A DNA stretch of 64,000 nt. It comes from Escherichia phage slur07. Positions 2,515 through 51,631 of this stretch are shown piece by piece. The position numbers and the translations under genes are program-made. How positions within the stretch are numbered: position 1 is the first letter of the stretch; every line of letters starts with the position of its first letter. Location: the sequence record NC_028780.1, one strand, 5' to 3'. Below the pieces are notes generated by a model. It was not told the DNA's origin, did no database searches, and worked only from the letters and a program-made list of their open reading frames with translations.

Positions 2515-3755
<1,241 letters not shown>

Positions 3756-16254: not shown

Positions 16255-16298
16255 GTTTACAAGACCGTTCCTCTGTGGTACTATACAACTATCAACTA
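16255..16298 (+). repeat. early-promoter core cassette, 43/44 identical to 42037-42080
   Basis: GTTTACAAGAC(C/T)GTTCCTCTGTGGTACTATACAACTATCAACTA; includes -35 and -10. Confidence 0.8.
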
Positions 16299-16312
16299 CG
16301 GAGGAACAGAAA

Positions 16313-16840
16313 ATGAATGCTAAAGATATTTTCAACTTGGTAAACTACAATGATGGTAAATTTAAATCTGAAGCTCAAAGCAAGTTCTTTAATGACATCT
16401 CAATTGGAGGTGAAATCACTGTTGATGGAGGACAAATTTACAAATCACGTTGGAATTGGATCGTTATTATTGATGAGATTGGTATTGTAGAAATTTACAA
16501 AAATACGAATAAAAATCGTACATTACACTGGTCTCGTGATACTAACGAACAGTACAAAAAGGATAAAGCATCTAAATTATCTCGTGTAACTCAAGAAGAT
16601 ATTGAGTTCATCAAGAAAGATATTTTGATGTATGATAACTTAATTGCTGAAGAGCAAGCTGTTATTGATAAATTTGATGAGATTAAAGCTTCTCGTGAAA
16701 TTCCTGATTTTATGAAAGAATCAGTAAATGAACGATACACTCTCATTTCAGAGCGTATTGAAACTTACAAAAAGCAAAGAGCTGAACGCCAGAATACTCT
16801 TCGGAAGTTTGAAGAACGGTTAAAGACGGTACTCGCATAA
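16313..16840 (+). CDS. hypothetical protein
   Basis: 176 aa from ATG 16313 (GGAGGAA RBS). Confidence 0.55.
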   Translation: MNAKDIFNLVNYNDGKFKSEAQSKFFNDISIGGEITVDGGQIYKSRWNWIVIIDEIGIVEIYKNTNKNRTLHWSRDTNEQYKKDKASKLSRVTQEDIEFIKKDILMYDNLIAEEQAVIDKFDEIKASREIPDFMKESVNERYTLISERIETYKKQRAERQNTLRKFEERLKTVLA

Positions 16841-16841
16841 C

Positions 16842-16866
16842 CGCTTTATACCAAGGATGGTATAAT
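16842..16866 (+). promoter_or_regulatory. MotA-dependent middle promoter-like element
   Basis: MotA-box-like CGCTTTA 16842-16848, 12-nt spacer, TATAAT 16861-16866. Confidence 0.4.
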
Positions 16867-16895
16867 GGTTCTAAGCCCTTTTAATTGAGATTATT

Positions 16896-17303
16896 ATGAA
16901 ACAGTTGATAATTAAAAGATTGAATTTATTGATATGTTGTTTATGTATAGTAATTGCATATGGTTATTACGCAATTAATGATTATATGCATTATAAAGAT
17001 TATGATGTTACTGTAGTTAATACCTTTACAGGAACTCAAGGAAAGGGGTCTAGTTTATCGTTTATTGCCGTATATGAACTAAATGACGGTTATAGATTTA
17101 GCGAATATATTTCACTGGAGATGTATTCTTCAATAGAAAAAGGTGATAATATTACTGTAAGTTTACGTCCTTTCGACGTAAAACAGACATTGTTTGATAA
17201 TATTGTTTGGTTCTTTGGAATGGTATTAGTTCAATCTGTGTGTGGTGCTTATATAGTCTGTTCCATCTTATTCTGTATATTTAGTAAAATTGAAATTGAG
17301 TGA
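16896..17303 (+). CDS. membrane protein
   Basis: 135 aa, N- and C-terminal TM helices. Confidence 0.55.
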   Translation: MKQLIIKRLNLLICCLCIVIAYGYYAINDYMHYKDYDVTVVNTFTGTQGKGSSLSFIAVYELNDGYRFSEYISLEMYSSIEKGDNITVSLRPFDVKQTLFDNIVWFFGMVLVQSVCGAYIVCSILFCIFSKIEIE

Positions 17304-17310
17304 GGAAAAT

Positions 17311-18198
17311 ATGTCAGTAGTAATTAATAATGTCAATGCAGTAATTAAATCTTTAGTTAATAAAAAATTGAATGAATGGACTGTACTTCGTCGTGGAGAG
17401 CCAGATAAATTTTTTCATAGATTTAACCCAACTTTGGATTTGAATGTTATTGACAGAGATGTTCATGCTGAAATATTAGATAAGTTTAAAGTTGATATTG
17501 GGTTTGGATTAGATAAACATTTACAACGAACAAACGGGTCTGGAATGGGTTTATCTAATCGCATCATGAAAGCCCTTAATAAAATTGGAGCGTTGTCTCG
17601 TATTAATGCGAGTGAAATCCTTCGCAATTATAATAAAGGATATGACCTTTATGGTCGACTAATGCCGAAATTATCATTCGATCAAATGATTGCGGATTTG
17701 TGGGAAAATCAACGACGATTATTAGCATTAGGCGCTCGATTAGCTAAAGGTCTAGATAAACAAATGATTTTTAAGACCAATAATACAGAAGACCTTAAAT
17801 GCTTTAAATTTAGTATTCGCGGCGATGATTATTATATCAGAGCTCGCTCTACAGATTATGTTAATATGGGGCATCATCTCTGTTTAGCTTTTGAAGTTTT
17901 AAAAGAAGCTGGAACGTTAGAATATTCATCTGGTGCTAAATGCCCGATTGGTTCAAATTGCATTTTAATTTATCGCCCGGATGAATCCAGTTTAACTAAA
18001 TTTCCTACAAAACCTGTACCAGTTCGTAGTAATGAAAAACATTCTGAGCAAATTGATTATTTTAATAAGCAAATTGAAGAGCTGAATATTTCTATTCAAC
18101 AATATGACGATGAAATTTTCAGACTATCTGGACTGAGTAGTAAAGCTAAATCTGAACGTGAAAAATTAATTAAAATTGTTGATTTACTTAAATCTTAA
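17311..18198 (+). CDS. hypothetical protein with C-terminal coiled coil (array member A)
   Basis: 295 aa from ATG 17311 (GAGGAAA RBS); C-terminal heptads. Confidence 0.55.
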   Translation: MSVVINNVNAVIKSLVNKKLNEWTVLRRGEPDKFFHRFNPTLDLNVIDRDVHAEILDKFKVDIGFGLDKHLQRTNGSGMGLSNRIMKALNKIGALSRINASEILRNYNKGYDLYGRLMPKLSFDQMIADLWENQRRLLALGARLAKGLDKQMIFKTNNTEDLKCFKFSIRGDDYYIRARSTDYVNMGHHLCLAFEVLKEAGTLEYSSGAKCPIGSNCILIYRPDESSLTKFPTKPVPVRSNEKHSEQIDYFNKQIEELNISIQQYDDEIFRLSGLSSKAKSEREKLIKIVDLLKS

Positions 18199-18206
18199 GG
18201 AACACC

Positions 18207-19226
18207 ATGAAAACTCGTTCTCAAATTGAAGATATGGTTCGTAATGCCAGCTATACTCGTGATGTTATGACATTTTTGTGCCAAAATAATTTAGACCCTG
18301 ATAAAGTTAATCGTGATATTCACTTTAAATATATGAATAGCAGTGAATGGTTACGTCATTTTAGTAAAGCGGGGTATATTACACAAATGACTGCTCGTGA
18401 GCAGCTCACCGATTTCTGTAAAACTATTGATTATAAAAATCCTCTATTTGTTCAAGGTGTTGGTCAGAGTAAGGTCGATTTATCATCTGGATTTTTCAAT
18501 CCAAATCATTATCGTATTGAATGGAGATTTATTGCTCTATTCCGTAAACAATTAAAGCAAATTTTGTCGACGGCTAGTCGATTAAAAGGTTCTGATATTA
18601 ACTTAAAGAATCTGAAATTTGATGGTTATACTCTTCAGATGGAAGTAAGACCATTAAAAGAAAATAATAGAACTGCACGAATTAGCTTTAAACCTAATAC
18701 AAAAAATTCTCTTTCAATTTGTGAATGCCTTAAATCACAGTTGACAGAAGCATTTAAGTATATGGATGTTGTTGCTGCTGTTCAATCTAAGATTTTACCT
18801 CGTTTTGAACGATTTAAGTTAGATACAACATCATATGAACTTGATATGATCGTTTCATTTAAATACGATTTTTTGAGAAAGGACGAAGTCCCGCAAGAGA
18901 AAAAGCAGGAAGTGCAAGATAACTTAAATTTATCCAATTACTTATCAAACGATCCTAAATTTTGGATGTATAGTTCAGGTAATAATGATGCATGGAAATT
19001 CAATAAAGTGAATTTTCTTCCTGTTGAAAATCCGAGTCTTAAACCTGTTGAAAAATGGCACGCGGATGCGATTGAGAAGTCTATCAAGGCAGTAGATGAT
19101 GAACTCGTTAAAGCGACCAATGAAGTGCTAGAAGCTGAAAAGGCGTTAGAACAAGCTCAAGAAAAAGTAAAAAATCTCACGAAGCAACGTTCTAAACTGA
19201 ACAATGCACTAAATGCACTGAACTAG
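18207..19226 (+). CDS. hypothetical protein with C-terminal coiled coil (array member B)
   Basis: 339 aa, starts MKTR like member D. Confidence 0.6.
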   Translation: MKTRSQIEDMVRNASYTRDVMTFLCQNNLDPDKVNRDIHFKYMNSSEWLRHFSKAGYITQMTAREQLTDFCKTIDYKNPLFVQGVGQSKVDLSSGFFNPNHYRIEWRFIALFRKQLKQILSTASRLKGSDINLKNLKFDGYTLQMEVRPLKENNRTARISFKPNTKNSLSICECLKSQLTEAFKYMDVVAAVQSKILPRFERFKLDTTSYELDMIVSFKYDFLRKDEVPQEKKQEVQDNLNLSNYLSNDPKFWMYSSGNNDAWKFNKVNFLPVENPSLKPVEKWHADAIEKSIKAVDDELVKATNEVLEAEKALEQAQEKVKNLTKQRSKLNNALNALN

Positions 19227-33172: not shown

Positions 33173-34857
33173 AGAATTTTAAACTAAATCGAGTTAGGTA
33201 TCAAAATATAATGTCAGTAGGTGGAAATCCTATTGACATTCAATTAGATAAGGTTCAAAAAACTCTTATTACTGGACGAAATGGCGGTGGTAAGTCTACT
33301 ATGCTAGAAGCCATCACATTTGGGCTTTTTGGCAAGCCATTTCGTGATGTAAAGAAAGGTCAATTAATAAACAGCACAAATAAGAAAGAACTTTTAGTTG
33401 AACTGTGGATGGAATATGATGAGAAAAAGTACTATATCAAAAGAGGACAAAAACCGAACGTTTTCGAAATCACCGTTAACGGTACACGTCTTAATGAATC
33501 TGCCAGCAGTAAAGATTTCCAAGCAGAATTTGAACAGCTTATCGGAATGTCATATGCCAGTTTCAAGCAGATTGTTGTCCTTGGTACAGCAGGGTATACC
33601 CCTTTCATGGGTTTGTCGACCCCTGCACGAAGAAAGCTTGTGGAAGACCTGCTTGAGGTAGGAACATTAGCTGAAATGGATAAGCTTAATAAAGCACTAA
33701 TACGTGAATTAAATTCACAAAACCAAGTGCTTGATGTTAAAAAAGATAGTATTATCCAACAAATTAAAATATATAATGATAACGTTGAACGCCAGAAAAA
33801 ATTAACGGGTGACAACCTTACTCGTCTGCAAAATATGTACGATGATTTGGCAAAAGAAGCTAGAACGCTAAAATCGGAAATAGAAGAAGCTAATGAAAGA
33901 TTAGTTAATATTGTTTTGGATGAAGACCCGACTGATGCATTTAATAAAATCGGTCAAGAAGCAGTTTTAATTAAATCAAAAATTGACTCATATAATAAAG
34001 TCATTAATATGTATCACGAAGGTGGATTATGTCCAACCTGTTTGTCGCAATTAAGTTCCGGTGATAAAGTTGTTTCTAAAATTAAAGATAAAGTTTCTGA
34101 ATGCACGCATTCGTTTGAACAGCTTTCAACACATCGTGATAATTTAAAAGTTCTTGTTGATGAATACCGAGATAATATTAAAACCCAACAGTCGTTGGCA
34201 AATGATATTCGCAATAAAAAGCAATCTCTAATCACGACGGTAGATAAAGCTAAAAAAGTTAAAGCGGCTATAGAAAAAGCATCTTCTGAGTTTATTGACC
34301 ATGCTGATGAAATAGCACTGCTTCAAGAAGAACTTGATAAAATTGTTAAGACAAAAACTAATTTAGTAATGGAAAAATACCACCGAGGAATTTTGACTGA
34401 TATGCTCAAAGATTCTGGTATTAAAGGTGCTATTATTAAAAAGTACATTCCATTATTTAATAAGCAGATTAACCATTATCTTAAAATAATGGAAGCGGAT
34501 TATGTGTTTACATTAGATGAAGAATTTAATGAGACAATTAAATCCCGTGGTCGTGAAGATTTTAGTTATGCTTCATTCAGTCAAGGTGAAAAAGCACGAA
34601 TTGATATTGCTCTTTTATTTACTTGGCGTGATATTGCTGAAAAAGTTTCAGGTGTTAAAATAAGTTGTTTATTTCTTGATGAAGTGTATGACGGTGCATT
34701 TGATGCTGAAGGTATTAAAAATGTAGCTAAAATTTTAGATGGTTTGAAGGATACCAACTTCTTCATAATTTCGCATAAAGACCATGACCCACAAGAATAT
34801 GGTCAGCATATTCAGATGGAAAAAGTTGGTAGATTTAGTTTAGCTAAGATTAGCTAA
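33169..34857 (+). CDS. 46: recombination ATPase subunit (Rad50/SbcC-like)
   Basis: 562 aa, GTG start; Walker A GRNGGGKST, central coiled coil with CPTC zinc hook, signature SQGE, Walker B LFLDE. Confidence 0.92.
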   Translation: MKNFKLNRVRYQNIMSVGGNPIDIQLDKVQKTLITGRNGGGKSTMLEAITFGLFGKPFRDVKKGQLINSTNKKELLVELWMEYDEKKYYIKRGQKPNVFEITVNGTRLNESASSKDFQAEFEQLIGMSYASFKQIVVLGTAGYTPFMGLSTPARRKLVEDLLEVGTLAEMDKLNKALIRELNSQNQVLDVKKDSIIQQIKIYNDNVERQKKLTGDNLTRLQNMYDDLAKEARTLKSEIEEANERLVNIVLDEDPTDAFNKIGQEAVLIKSKIDSYNKVINMYHEGGLCPTCLSQLSSGDKVVSKIKDKVSECTHSFEQLSTHRDNLKVLVDEYRDNIKTQQSLANDIRNKKQSLITTVDKAKKVKAAIEKASSEFIDHADEIALLQEELDKIVKTKTNLVMEKYHRGILTDMLKDSGIKGAIIKKYIPLFNKQINHYLKIMEADYVFTLDEEFNETIKSRGREDFSYASFSQGEKARIDIALLFTWRDIAEKVSGVKISCLFLDEVYDGAFDAEGIKNVAKILDGLKDTNFFIISHKDHDPQEYGQHIQMEKVGRFSLAKIS

Positions 34858-35566
34858 GTTTATATTTACAGTTATCATTATGCCACCTTGATAAATTTCC
34901 GAAAGTGGTAACTTTACCGCAATGGACGCAAGTACCAGTCTTTTCAGTTTTCTTGCGTCCATTTGGATTTTTCTTGCAGAAATTTCTATGCGCTGCGATA
35001 ACGCATTTCTTGCCTATCATTCCGCAGAATTCGCAGGATGTTTCTTCAAGAACGATTGCTTTAAGCCCGTTTGAGATATTATTTCTGTGTTCTTTAGACA
35101 TTGGTGGTCTAACTTTAGGATTGGGGTGATTTGGGCAGTTATCAAAATGCCAACGATTCATATTCCCGCTTAATCCAGACTTACCGCAATGAGGACAAGT
35201 TAGTCTTGCTTTATTAGCTACTGCATCAGACATTTTCTTTCGTGTCTCCTGGGAGAATTCTTTATTCTTTTCTATTTCCCAGAGTTTACGACGAATCCAA
35301 CCGAAAGTTTTATTGTTGCGTTTAGCGTATTTTGTGGAAACTGTCATCATGTTAGCAGCATAGACTAATTTTGGTTCAGAAGGATAAATTTTTACTAAAA
35401 GTTGATGAGCTACATAGTGCTCTTCTGGTGTTAAATCTACTAAGTTTGAGGCATCATCGCTGCCATTTAAACAGCGTGGTATAATGTGATGAGATTCAGT
35501 ATAGCAATCAAGTTTTCGAGATTTAGCATTAGAGATTAACTTTTCATAAATTAGTTTATAATTCAT
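34850..35566 (-). CDS. free-standing HNH homing endonuclease with three C-terminal zinc-finger repeats
   Basis: HNH motif ESHHIIPR...NLVDLTPEEHYVAH; repeats CPHCG..WHFDNC, CEFCG..HRNFC, CVHCG..WHNDNC; AAGGA RBS. Confidence 0.8.
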   Translation of the reverse strand: MNYKLIYEKLISNAKSRKLDCYTESHHIIPRCLNGSDDASNLVDLTPEEHYVAHQLLVKIYPSEPKLVYAANMMTVSTKYAKRNNKTFGWIRRKLWEIEKNKEFSQETRKKMSDAVANKARLTCPHCGKSGLSGNMNRWHFDNCPNHPNPKVRPPMSKEHRNNISNGLKAIVLEETSCEFCGMIGKKCVIAAHRNFCKKNPNGRKKTEKTGTCVHCGKVTTFGNLSRWHNDNCKYKLS

Positions 35567-35599: not shown

Positions 35600-35607
35600 T
35601 ATTTATA
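35600..35607 (-). promoter_or_regulatory. late promoter box TATAAATA on minus strand
   Basis: forward TATTTATA is the reverse complement; about 33 nt upstream of minus-strand ATG at 35566. Confidence 0.5.
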
Positions 35608-48313: not shown

Positions 48314-48607
48314 ATGAAAAAATTTATCTTTGCCACAATTTTTGCTTTAGCTTCTTGTGCTGCTCAGCCTGCTATGGCAGGTTATGATAAAGATTTGTGC
48401 GAATGGTCTATGACTGCTGATCAGACTGAGGTTGAAACTCAAATTGAAGCAGATATTATGAATATCGTTGAGCGCGATCGCCCTGAAATGAAAGCTGAAG
48501 TGCAAAAACAGCTTAAGTCTGGTGGTGTAATGCAGTATAATTATGTTCTGTATTGCGATAAAAACTTTAATAATAAAAATATCATCGCTGAAGTGGTAGG
48601 TGAGTAA
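48314..48607 (+). CDS. sp: spackle periplasmic protein
   Basis: 97 aa with signal peptide; size and position match T4 Sp. Confidence 0.75.
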   Translation: MKKFIFATIFALASCAAQPAMAGYDKDLCEWSMTADQTEVETQIEADIMNIVERDRPEMKAEVQKQLKSGGVMQYNYVLYCDKNFNNKNIIAEVVGE

Positions 48608-48619
48608 TTAGAGGTTAAT

Positions 48620-48976
48620 ATGTATAGTTCTGAATTTTCATATTTAAAAATGGAAAAAATTTCATACGATTTTATAGATGAAAAGGTTTATTACAGTTTC
48701 CATGAACCACGTTTTAATAGTGAGGTTGGGTTTATTGTAGTAAAAGATAATTTTATTTTAAAAATATATTCAGCATTAAAGGATTTTCATTACGAAAATA
48801 TTAACCTAAAATTTAATAAAGAAAACGTTCGTAATTGCGCAGTAACAATTACAGGAAATAAAGGTACATGTGTTATGCTATCTGATGAAATTAATGATTT
48901 GCTAAATGATGCAGAAAATATTACTGCACCATCTATTGATGACCAAATTTTTAATGCTTTTATGAATAGAGGTTAA
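48620..48976 (+). CDS. hypothetical protein (T4 61.2 position)
   Basis: 118-aa ORF. Confidence 0.5.
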   Translation: MYSSEFSYLKMEKISYDFIDEKVYYSFHEPRFNSEVGFIVVKDNFILKIYSALKDFHYENINLKFNKENVRNCAVTITGNKGTCVMLSDEINDLLNDAENITAPSIDDQIFNAFMNRG

Positions 48977-48977
48977 T

Positions 48978-49142
48978 ATGAAAACATATAAAGAATTTAT
49001 CAAAGAAGATATGGTAGCTGGAGATTCAGGTGGTAATCCTGAAAATATCTCTACTGGAACAACGTCAGGCGCTGTAGTAAATAAAGGTCCTGAACAGATT
49101 CCTAAAAAGAAAAAAGAGGAATCTAAAGAAAAAGAAGAGTAA
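48978..49142 (+). CDS. small protein with internal-protein-type capsid-targeting sequence
   Basis: MKTYKEFIKE N-terminus (IKE cleavage motif), Gly/Ser-rich middle, Lys/Glu-rich tail. Confidence 0.45.
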   Translation: MKTYKEFIKEDMVAGDSGGNPENISTGTTSGAVVNKGPEQIPKKKKEESKEKEE

Positions 49143-49144
49143 AA

Positions 49145-50173
49145 ATGTCATCAATACCTTGGATTGATAATGAGTTTGCATACCGTGCATTAGCTCATTT
49201 ACCTAAATTCACACAAGTAAATAATAGTTCAACTTTTAAATTACGGTTTAGATGTCCTGTTTGTGGAGATTCAAAAACCGACCAGAATAAAGCTCGTGGA
49301 TGGTATTATGGTGATAATAATGAAGGAAATATTCATTGTTATAACTGTAACTATCATGCACCAATCGGAATATATTTAAAGGAGTTTGAACCTGATTTAT
49401 ATCGTGAGTATATCTTTGAAATAAGAAAAGAAAAAGGTAAAAGTCGTCCAGTAGAAAAACCTAAAGAACTTCCTAAACAACCTGAGAAGAAAATAATTAA
49501 ATCTCTTCCGTCATGTGTTAGATTAGATAAACTGGCGGAAGACCATCCAATTATAAAATATGTAAAAGCTCGTTGTATTCCAAAGGATAAATGGAAATAT
49601 CTTTGGTTTACAACCGAATGGCCTAAATTAGTTAATAGTATAGCACCCGGAACATATAAAAAGGAAATACCTGAGCCTCGTCTTGTTATTCCAATTTATA
49701 ATGCTAATGGAAAAGCTGAGTCTTTTCAAGGACGTGCATTAAAGAAAGATGCTCCTCAAAAATATATAACCATCAAAGCTTATCCTGAGGCAACAAAAAT
49801 CTATGGAGTCGAACGAGTTAAAGATGGTGATGTATATGTTCTAGAAGGACCTATAGATTCACTTTTTATTGAAAATGGTATAGCTATTACGGGTGGTCAA
49901 TTAGACCTAGAAGTTGTTCCATTTAAAGATAGACGTGTGTGGGTTTTAGATAATGAACCTCGTCATCCTGACACTATTAAGCGAATGACTAAATTAGTTG
50001 ATGCAGGAGAAAGGGTTATGTTTTGGGATAAATCTCCCTGGAAATCAAAAGATGTTAATGATATGATTAGAAAGGAAGGTGCAACCCCTGAACAAATTAT
50101 GGAATATATGAAAAATAATATTGCCCAGGGGTTGATGGCTAAAATGCGGTTATCTAAATATGCTAAGATTTAA
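49145..50173 (+). CDS. 61: DNA primase
   Basis: 342 aa; zinc ribbon CPVCGDS...CYNCNYH; matches T4 gp61. Confidence 0.93.
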   Translation: MSSIPWIDNEFAYRALAHLPKFTQVNNSSTFKLRFRCPVCGDSKTDQNKARGWYYGDNNEGNIHCYNCNYHAPIGIYLKEFEPDLYREYIFEIRKEKGKSRPVEKPKELPKQPEKKIIKSLPSCVRLDKLAEDHPIIKYVKARCIPKDKWKYLWFTTEWPKLVNSIAPGTYKKEIPEPRLVIPIYNANGKAESFQGRALKKDAPQKYITIKAYPEATKIYGVERVKDGDVYVLEGPIDSLFIENGIAITGGQLDLEVVPFKDRRVWVLDNEPRHPDTIKRMTKLVDAGERVMFWDKSPWKSKDVNDMIRKEGATPEQIMEYMKNNIAQGLMAKMRLSKYAKI

Positions 50174-50370
50174 ATTAACCCAACTAAAGCAAATGCTAAA
50201 TCTACGAATGTATCAAGAGTAACTACTGGAATATTAATACCATGTGCAATTGCAACAGGTGATAAAATAAAGTTCCAGAGTAAAATTCCTACCATAGCAG
50301 AAATAGTAAAAGCTATACGTTTCTTATTACCTTTTATGGCATTAACAAGTGCCATTAATTTTTGTACCAT
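50170..50370 (-). CDS. antisense small membrane protein
   Basis: 66 aa, two hydrophobic helices; AGGAGG SD 4 nt before minus-strand ATG; stop overlaps gene 61 stop. Confidence 0.45.
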   Translation of the reverse strand: MVQKLMALVNAIKGNKKRIAFTISAMVGILLWNFILSPVAIAHGINIPVVTLDTFVDLAFALVGLI

Positions 50371-50383
50371 ATGTCCTCCTTAT

Positions 50384-50407
50384 TGCTTTATATATTTATT
50401 GTATAAT
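50384..50407 (+). promoter_or_regulatory. MotA-box middle promoter
   Basis: TGCTTTA 50384-50390, 11-nt spacer, TATAAT 50402-50407. Confidence 0.5.
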
Positions 50408-50441
50408 TAATCTACTAACCCATGAATTGAAAGGAAAAATA

Positions 50442-50960
50442 ATGGCTCACTTTAATGAATGTGCTCATTTGATCGAAGGTGTTGATAAAGCAAATCGTGC
50501 ATATGCTGAGTATATTATGCACAGTATTGACCCATTGCAGGTTATGCTTGACATGCAGCGGCATTTACAGATTCGTTTGGCTAATGATAAACCAGAAACA
50601 AATCGTCATCCTGATTCACTTGAAACTGCAGGAGAAGTTCTTGCTTGGCTGCGAAACCAAGACGATTATATCGCAGATGAAACTCGCGAGCTATATACTT
50701 CTCTTGGTGGTATGAGTAATGGTGAAAAAGAAGCTTCTGCCGTATGGAAACCTTGGAAGAAACGTTATTCTGAAATGCAATCCAAGAAAATTCAAGACTT
50801 ATCTCCTGAAGATCAACTTGAAATTAAATTTGAACTGATTGATCAATTTCACTTTTTCATGAATAAATTCATTGCTCTTGGAATGTCAGCTGAAGAAATA
50901 TTTAAACTTTATTATCTGAAAAATGCTGAAAACTTCGCTCGTCAAGACAGAGGCTATTAA
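50442..50960 (+). CDS. 56: dCTPase/dUTPase (dCTP pyrophosphatase)
   Basis: 172 aa starting MAHFNECAHLIEG; size and position match T4 gp56. Confidence 0.8.
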   Translation: MAHFNECAHLIEGVDKANRAYAEYIMHSIDPLQVMLDMQRHLQIRLANDKPETNRHPDSLETAGEVLAWLRNQDDYIADETRELYTSLGGMSNGEKEASAVWKPWKKRYSEMQSKKIQDLSPEDQLEIKFELIDQFHFFMNKFIALGMSAEEIFKLYYLKNAENFARQDRGY

Positions 50961-51385: not shown

Positions 51386-51631
51386 ATGGCTAGTACTCGC
51401 GGTTATGTTAATATCAAAACATTTGAGCAGAAATTAGATGGAAATAAGAAAATTGAAGGAAAGGAAATTTCCGTAGCTTTCCCTCTTTATTCTGACGTTC
51501 ACAAAATTTCTGGCGCTCATTACCAGACATTCCCTTCAGAAAAAGCAGCATATTCTACAGTATATGAAGAAAATCAACGTACTGAATGGATTGCTGCAAA
51601 TGAAGATTTGTGGAAAGTAACTGGTGAATAA
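51386..51631 (+). CDS. soc: small outer capsid protein
   Basis: 81 codons starting MASTRGYVNIKTFEQKLDGNKK; matches T4 Soc. Confidence 0.85.
   Translation: MASTRGYVNIKTFEQKLDGNKKIEGKEISVAFPLYSDVHKISGAHYQTFPSEKAAYSTVYEENQRTEWIAANEDLWKVTGE

Follow-up and report, generated by a model that had tools for sequence, protein, structure and literature searches.

In T4-like phages, what occupies the interval between gene 61 (DNA primase) and gene 56 (dCTPase/dUTPase) when dam is missing from it? Escherichia phage slur07 raises this question. An earlier note on a 64,000-nt stretch of its genome (NC_028780.1, hereafter the window) suggested that the interval lacks dam and instead encodes, on the minus strand, a small hydrophobic protein with two helices. 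We therefore investigated whether this open reading frame (ORF) is a real gene, how it relates to dam, when it may be expressed and what its product may do.

The 61-56 interval and the position of dam

This region of the window corresponds to the early cluster of replication genes in a Tequatrovirus (T4-like) phage, and early transcription follows the + strand. The genes sp (48314-48607), 61.2, which is short here (48620-48976), and 61.1 (48978-49142) come immediately before gene 61 (49145-50173, + strand). Gene 56 (50443-50960, + strand) is followed by two small ORFs and then by soc (51386-51631). The top database match of the phage reaches 96.9% identity over 24 kb, indicating a new mosaic of known parts.

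Between the two genes, a predicted small membrane protein of 66 amino acids, MVQKLMALVNAIKGNKKRIAFTISAMVGILLWNFILSPVAIAHGINIPVVTLDTFVDLAFALVGLI, is encoded on the minus strand (50170-50370, ATG start), with gene 61 as its convergent neighbour and gene 56 as its divergent one. The Shine-Dalgarno sequence TAAGGAGG (50382 to 50375, minus strand) is located 4 nt 5' of the ATG. At the other end, the stop codon TAA of gene 61 (50171-50173) and that of the ORF (complement of 50170-50172) are both contained in TTAA at 50170-50173, on opposite strands, and have two bases in common. The hydrophobic ORF with its strong Shine-Dalgarno sequence and its overlap with the gene 61 stop are thus as the earlier note had described them.

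The claim that dam is missing from the interval and from the whole window was confirmed as well. A tblastn search of the whole window with T4 Dam revealed no homologue (best E = 0.32), and a scan of the six frames of the 64 kb for the motif [DN]PP[YFW] found none, the sole related match being one SPPF in a 103-aa ORF of no relevance here. With dam absent, slur07 DNA is predicted to be devoid of GATC N6-methyladenine, a modification that T6 DNA is not known to carry either.

In T4, dam is found where the earlier note had placed it, between genes 61 and 56: the order in NC_000866 is gene 56 (16270-16785), dam (16846-17625) and gene 61 (17935-18963). However, the idea that the ORF is present instead of dam had to be abandoned. 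The 309-bp gap between dam and gene 61 of T4 (17626-17934) contains an unannotated copy of the ORF (17738-17938, + strand), with a 4-nt overlap at the gene 61 stop, and T2 and Bas37 also carry the ORF and dam together. The order is gene 61, 66-aa ORF (unannotated), 181-aa ORF, dam and gene 56 in T2, and gene 61, 66-aa ORF, short ORF, dam and gene 56 in Bas37. T6 has no dam; its order is gene 61, 66-aa ORF and gene 56, and it is collinear with the window, with 410 of 421 nt identical. When T2, T4 and T6 are compared, as the earlier note had proposed, the ORF is thus present in all three, and dam in T2 and T4 only. By gene order and alignment, the window carries the T6-type, dam-less version of a variable 61-56 interval.

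The window and T4 are near-identical from gene 61 across the ORF, its Shine-Dalgarno sequence and the adjoining upstream ATAAATAT. Beyond this element, T4 contains about 0.9 kb of additional DNA, consisting of an endonuclease-gene remnant and dam, and homology comes back at the middle promoter with its MotA box and at the start of gene 56. The empty site of the dam cassette can be placed at 50382-50400, homology with the 61/ORF side of T4 extending to about 50399 and homology with the T4 dam-56 intergenic region starting from about 50382. A T4-type ORF-dam junction was observed in 155 of the 499 records that contain the 5' end of the ORF, and a Dam at least 90% identical to that of T4 is encoded in 182 records. 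The dam-less state is therefore that of the majority, about two thirds of Tequatrovirus records being without dam. The distance from the ORF to gene 56 varies, the site being empty or occupied by dam, by an endonuclease-like ORF plus dam, by a homing endonuclease or by hypothetical ORFs. In these alignments the 66-aa ORF is the part that stays constant; what varies is dam, a 0.9-kb cassette inserted past the predicted ORF promoter.

Two further elements were found in the interval. A middle-promoter-like element of gene 56 is present on the + strand (50384-50407), with the MotA box TGCTTTA at 50384-50390, an 11-nt spacer and TATAAT at 50402-50407; its T4 homologue is P(M)16.53, located upstream of gene 56 at oriA. 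The late-promoter-like box of the ORF, described below, sits within the spacer of this divergent promoter. The 61-56 interval can then be seen as a cassette site adjoining a fixed small gene, probably late, and an oriA-associated middle promoter. The second element is a hairpin on the early (+) strand, ATGGCATT-AACA-AGTGCCAT followed by TAATTTTTGT (50336-50365), located within codons 6-12 of the ORF. This hairpin and its T-run could act as a terminator for gene 61 transcripts. We rejected a conserved dual-function terminator, since the hairpin is confined to Tequatrovirus and missing in the other genera.

A conserved coding gene beside the primase gene

The ORF is an orthologue of RB69ORF029w and bas37_0144 and belongs to the family phrog_2024. 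The match to the profile is full-length (E = 1.4e-31, residues 2-66 on positions 1-65 of 65), and the known members, RB69ORF029w, RB32ORF030w, bas37_0144, VR26_031/032 and CPT_Marfa_028, share with it their length, strand, gene 61 neighbour and stop overlap; we noticed no difference that would set the window ORF apart.

By tblastn, 691 phage records contain the ORF, T4 included, 190 of them at less than 60% identity, and a protein at least 99% identical is encoded in 87 phage records. The sequences form two subfamilies, A and B, which are about 20% identical to one another; subfamily B accounts for 118 additional records and, like the Kosakonia member, also matches phrog_2024. Members of subfamily A occur in Tequatrovirus, Mosigvirus (RB69ORF029w) and Gaprivervirus, where there are two tandem copies and the first is of this type. 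The second Gaprivervirus copy is of subfamily B, which is otherwise present once each in Dhakavirus JS98, Marfavirus, Klebsiella phage Potts1, Kanagawavirus and Mosugukvirus.

In every genus examined (Tequatro-, Mosig-, Gapriver-, Dhaka-, Marfa-, Kanagawa- and Mosugukvirus) the ORF is positioned tail-to-tail with gene 61. Convergence with overlapping 3' ends was observed in T4, T2, T6, RB69, VR26, Marfa and JS98, and also in Q7622, PM2, Kosakonia phage 305 and Bas37; in most genera the two genes share 4 nt, and in PM2 and Q7622 they share 21-24 nt. What we add to the existing catalogue is, in part, this placement, which the alignments find fixed beside gene 61 across at least seven genera.

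When 1.8 billion representative proteins were scanned exhaustively with HMMER, credible matches were obtained only to proteins of T4-like phages. Three large proteins with good E-values (P0032, P0036 and P0037) were discarded as spurious, their matches being due to low-complexity tandem repeats. We found no family match to the ORF in Pfam, NCBIfam, PADLOC or the PDB; Foldseek against viral structures retrieved only the ORF's own family, and the profile search of the PDB gave noise. As far as these searches reach, the phrog_2024 family is confined to T-even-type phages.

Because this AT-rich window contains many spurious antisense ORFs (30-100 aa), the length of the ORF is by itself weak evidence. 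More informative are its spread over 691 phage records, the ATAAATA box described below, which is rare in front of window ORFs, and the substitution pattern. Pairwise dN/dS values range from 0.08 to 0.45, indicating purifying selection, and between genera codon positions 1, 2 and 3 differ at about 31, 11 and 40 sites, respectively, which is the signature expected of a hydrophobic coding sequence. The low dN/dS, together with the fact that codon position 2 is the least changed, argues that the ORF is protein-coding. Both the Shine-Dalgarno sequence and the ATG are conserved across all lineages. Judged by these comparisons, the minus strand at 50170-50370 contains a genuine gene under purifying selection.

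Data on the dispensability of this gene come from the orthologue in Bas37, whose protein is 94% identical to that of the window ORF. In the HIDEN-SEQ transposon study, bas37_0144 (91945-92145, + strand), which overlaps the primase gene by 4 nt, was hit at 20 of 24 TA sites and classed as 'Non-essential', with log2 fold changes of +0.33 and +0.20 in two host comparisons, neither of them significant (bioRxiv 10.1101/2025.11.20.689424). Since such a close relative tolerates transposon insertions, the gene is an accessory one, dispensable under laboratory conditions.

Predicted late expression of a membrane protein

Upstream of the ORF, every lineage has a box (N)ATAAATA that ends 13-22 nt from the ATG; it is the sole upstream element common to all of them. 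In the window the box is AATAAATA (50400 to 50393, minus strand), as in RB69 and JS98. It matches TATAAATA at 7 of 8 positions, being the A(-13) variant; the perfect TATAAATA is present in Marfa, Q7622 and Kosakonia phage 305, GATAAATA in T4 (about 17709-17716) and PM2, and CATAAATA in VR26 and TH40. The consensus of T4 late promoters is TATAAATA at -13 to -6 (PMC2988020, PMC1524935); the natural variant seen most often in T4 has A at -13, at 9 of 50 sites (PMC2988020), and position -13 is poorly conserved among T4 relatives (PMC1524935). Since the family-wide box fits this promoter, the ORF is probably a late gene.

The heptamer ATAAATA is rare in the window, with only 12 copies on both strands of the 64 kb. 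When we considered the 76 window ORFs of at least 50 aa having a Shine-Dalgarno sequence and an ATG, we observed it at -36 to -8 in only two cases, the 66-aa ORF and gene e. The latter is a known late gene. Nor was any sigma-70-type promoter found upstream of the 66-aa ORF on its strand. T4 late genes with the A(-13) variant of TATAAATA share with the ORF the AATAAATA box, a short AT-rich leader and a strong Shine-Dalgarno sequence, and T4 late genes lie mostly on the clockwise strand, which corresponds to the orientation of the ORF. Unlike them, the ORF stands alone within the early replication cluster, and its late promoter is a predicted one.

Some observations count against the late class. 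Position -13 of the box is G or C in T4, PM2 and Gaprivervirus. In RB69, none of the 31 late promoters predicted by an HMM (Nolan et al.) precedes RB69ORF029w, and the authors considered that novel ORFs go with the early genes (PMC1524935). In the literature on T4 ribosome profiling, unannotated ORFs, antisense and late transcripts, proteomics and RB69ORF029w, we found no expression or function evidence specific to the ORF. The protein offers a single convenient tryptic peptide, LMALVNAIK, and this may account for its absence from proteomic reports.

If the gene is indeed late, a gp55-dependent transcript would start near 50387, with a leader of about 17 nt containing TAAGGAGG. Because no terminator was found downstream of the ORF on its strand, this transcript would continue, as antisense RNA, into the final part of gene 61. 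For the opposite strand, we strongly infer that the early and middle transcripts running from gene 61 to gene 56 are antisense to the ORF.

The predicted product begins with a basic, amphipathic segment (residues 1-18, with 5 K/R and no acidic residue). By hydropathy, every member has a strong membrane helix at residues 19-42, in agreement with TMHMM, which predicts a single membrane helix at residues 21-41 of RB69ORF029w (PMC1524935, Additional file 2). The last 22 residues or so, past a His/Gln-Gly turn, are hydrophobic in subfamily A and weakly so in subfamily B and in the Kosakonia member. An AlphaFold2 model (19-sequence alignment, pLDDT 80) contains helices at 2-12, 16-42 and 52-63. The description of the protein as having two hydrophobic helices therefore stands for one robust membrane helix (about 19-42), but not fully for the C-terminal one, which is short and, in subfamily B, weakly hydrophobic.

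The protein ends in ...LAFALVGLI, and no K/R is present beyond residue 20. According to the positive-inside rule the N terminus would be in the cytoplasm, and the product is thus most likely an inner-membrane protein with a cytoplasmic N terminus. The short C-terminal helix, which contains Asp/Glu53, would fold back, either into the membrane or on its periplasmic face. Met1, Trp32, Asn33, Pro38 and Gly44 are invariant, and Pro48, Val50 and Gly64 nearly so. An acidic residue (Asp or Glu) occupies position 53 in every aligned member but VR26_032, the second Gaprivervirus copy, which has Gly. The presence of an invariant Asn in the middle of the membrane helix and of a conserved acidic residue suggests helix-helix contacts, either in self-association or with a partner.

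Candidate roles and annotation status

The explanation that best accounts for these data overall, to which we give a probability of about 0.75, is that the ORF is a real accessory gene, independent of dam, which is expressed late and whose product is located in the inner membrane; our confidence in any mechanism is low. Tentatively, the product would sit in the inner membrane late in infection and would act there via intramembrane polar contacts (Asn33, Asp/Glu53), by self-association or by contact with a partner membrane protein. It might in this way tune an envelope-linked late event, for example lysis timing or lysis inhibition. It would not be an essential structural or replication factor.

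A more specific version of this proposal is that of an overlooked T-even late gene whose inner-membrane product has a late regulatory role, in lysis timing through T/RI, in lysis inhibition or in the anchoring of assembly. We consider it unlikely. T4 Imm, Ac and RI are likewise small, non-essential T-even inner-membrane proteins, and the ORF has no Pfam match to any of them. No r-type (rapid-lysis) mutation is known to map in the gap between gene 61 and dam, which counts against a role in lysis. So does, for the mechanism as a whole, the lack of a fitness effect in the two host comparisons of the transposon study (bioRxiv 10.1101/2025.11.20.689424). If the gene is of this kind, its transcript might also silence the primase mRNA by convergent antisense transcription.

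The product could also be a lysis protein of the holin, pinholin or antiholin type, which would build up in the inner membrane late in infection and there make the membrane permeable or modulate the holin T. A small membrane protein encoded behind a late-promoter box, with conserved polar residues within its hydrophobic helices, would fit such a role, and the UniProt entry of a 91%-identical protein is named 'Holin'. However, we discarded this label, which was assigned automatically: no holin family match was found in Pfam, NCBIfam or the PDB, even at permissive E-values, and the protein is devoid of a charged hydrophilic C-terminal tail, its basic residues being all N-terminal and its C terminus hydrophobic. 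The class II holins and pinholins such as S21 of phage 21 have about 65-70 aa, membrane helices and late expression, and the window ORF resembles them in size, membrane helices and (predicted) late expression. It differs from S21-type pinholins in showing no sequence or HMM similarity and no charged C-terminal tail, in its short and weakly hydrophobic second helix, in its location outside a lysis cassette and in being dispensable. Its neighbours are genes 61 and 56, and gene e (start at about 2989) is 47 kb away, so that it is unlinked to the lysis genes. T-even phages already possess the holin T, RI, RIII and spanins, and the transposon data for bas37_0144 show that insertions are tolerated without fitness change in two comparisons. 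A holin-type function is thus, in our opinion, unlikely.

Another proposal is that of a peptide resembling a type I toxin, or of an exclusion peptide, whose early translation would be blocked by the complementary 61-to-56 RNA and which would act in superinfection exclusion or host killing. Its size and hydrophobicity are compatible with this, the early-strand transcripts are necessarily antisense to the whole ORF, and the hairpin with its T-run lies on the early strand within the ORF. As with the type I toxins Hok, TisB and Ldr, a small hydrophobic peptide is encoded by an mRNA under antisense transcription. The ORF differs from these toxins in showing no homology to them and no evident dedicated sRNA, in having its basic residues at the N terminus and not at the C terminus, in being phage-encoded and in its place behind a (predicted) late promoter. 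No sigma-70-like promoter that could serve a dedicated antisense sRNA was found at the locus, the hairpin is not conserved beyond Tequatrovirus, and no match was obtained in PADLOC (E ≤ 1) or in Pfam. Exclusion would call for earlier expression than a late promoter provides, Imm and Sp being early products; the gene for T4 Imm is early and lies on the early strand, and the window ORF is found on the other strand, downstream of its late-promoter-like box. The dispensability of bas37_0144 also argues against this proposal, which we regard as quite improbable. For the toxin, exclusion and holin ideas, which the earlier note had put forward, none of the family hallmarks that can be examined in a sequence was found.

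The conserved element could also be the RNA, the late transcript acting as an antisense to the 3' end of gene 61 so as to switch off primase in the late phase of infection; the peptide would have a secondary role. The tail-to-tail overlap with gene 61 is kept in all genera, no terminator was found beyond the ORF on its strand, and several T4 sites are transcribed on both strands at different times (PMC2988020). But substitutions follow a protein-level pattern, with dN/dS below 0.45 and codon position 2 the most conserved, residues are invariant between subfamilies that are only about 20% identical, and the Shine-Dalgarno sequence and the ATG are kept everywhere; moreover, the position beside gene 61 may be mere inheritance. 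We consequently attach very little probability to a role at the RNA level.

Finally, the possibilities that the ORF arose by chance in a non-coding spacer or took the place of dam, which the abundance of antisense ORFs of similar size and the missing annotation in the T4, T2 and JS98 reference records might have favoured, retain hardly any credit and are already refuted by the comparative data, namely the conservation of ORF, Shine-Dalgarno sequence and frame down to about 20% identity, dN/dS values below 1 and the coexistence of the ORF with dam in T4, T2 and Bas37.

The real, dam-independent accessory gene that we favour is an ordinary one, and hundreds of genomes already list its product as a hypothetical protein; in itself it will not surprise T4 specialists, to whom the question is a modest one and its omission from reference annotation may be of more interest. 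Besides its fixed position, we add that it is present though unannotated in T4 (NC_000866), T2 (LC348380) and JS98 (NC_010105), that a candidate late-promoter box accompanies the whole family and that, from the alignments, a cassette site lies past the predicted ORF promoter, with dam as one of its cassettes. The reference annotations of these three phages thus gain one conserved gene. Screens built on them miss it: in the T4 table of the HIDEN-SEQ study there is no entry between dam and gene 61 and the T4 copy is unscored (bioRxiv 10.1101/2025.11.20.689424).

In the T6 record the protein is called 'putative head morphogenesis protein', which we consider unreliable since the same record names Soc 'terminase small subunit' and gp56 'ferredoxin'. 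The ORF is unannotated in the 1984 record of this T4 region (X01416), and a pyrodigal-annotated T4 record does call it.

Overlapping promoters and a hairpin at the small gene

The small gene, which encodes the 66-aa membrane protein, has its late-promoter box at 50393-50400 on the minus strand of the window, within the spacer of the MotA-box middle promoter of gene 56 (50384-50407, plus strand), which diverges from the small gene. Phages that lack dam therefore have a middle and a late promoter that overlap back to back. The middle promoter of gene 56 corresponds to the oriA promoter in T4. We also observed a terminator-like hairpin with a T-run on the early (plus) strand at 50336-50365, within codons 6-12 of the small gene, at which gene 61 transcripts could terminate. 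This hairpin and T-run are found in T4 and in the window and are absent from the other genera compared.

ATAAATA elsewhere

When the whole 64-kb window was searched, ATAAATA was found 12 times on the two strands together, as compared with roughly 29 per strand expected by our own estimate from base composition; this scarcity suggests selection against stray late promoters. A perfect TATAAATA is present at position 35607, upstream of an HNH-type homing-endonuclease-like ORF of 238 aa (34850-35566, minus strand), which is another gene on the opposite strand, and probably a late one, within the early region. On the early strand, the gene 61.1 homologue has an ATAAATA at most 36 nt from its start in Marfa, JS98, Q7622 and Kosakonia phage 305 (at about 2908, 2926, 2931 and 2933 of the respective loci); no ATAAATA occurs within 36 nt of the 61.1 start in the window.

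Neighbouring ORFs

In T2 and many relatives, an ORF of 181-186 aa (phrog_8706) is situated between the small gene and dam, for instance at 1607-2152 of the T2 locus and at 1841-2401 of compared locus L010. It contains a PD-(D/E)XK-like FDIV...EIK motif and has a weak Pfam match to DpnII, an endonuclease specific for GATC, that falls below the threshold (16.8 bits where the cutoff is 23; E=0.0045). In T4, only its last ~20 codons remain (...NTYDEELYNSFFAAINERI), at about 3627-3700 of the T4 locus. The ORF and Dam could form an endonuclease and Dam pair, former or current, in the T-even phages.

The gene 61.2 homologue of the window (48620-48976, plus strand) encodes 118 aa, whereas gp61.2 of T4 has 208 aa, and the short form (357 bp) is common to Bas37 and the window. 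Only the C-terminal half of the Pfam AdfA profile (anti-DarT factor A) is matched, at positions 113-211 of 211.

Copies and labels of the small gene

In the T6 record AP018814.1, the small ORF is labelled 'putative head morphogenesis protein'. We rejected this label as evidence because product names in the record are wrong or shifted, Soc and gp56 being likewise mislabelled as 'terminase small subunit' and 'ferredoxin'.

Gaprivervirus carries two tandem paralogues of the small gene, subfamily A then B, with one late box ahead of both (2495-2901 of the VR26 locus). In another Gaprivervirus locus, L015, the usual start of the second copy (2690-2899) is gone (ATG TGA...); all that is left is a truncated frame from MGFLTLD....
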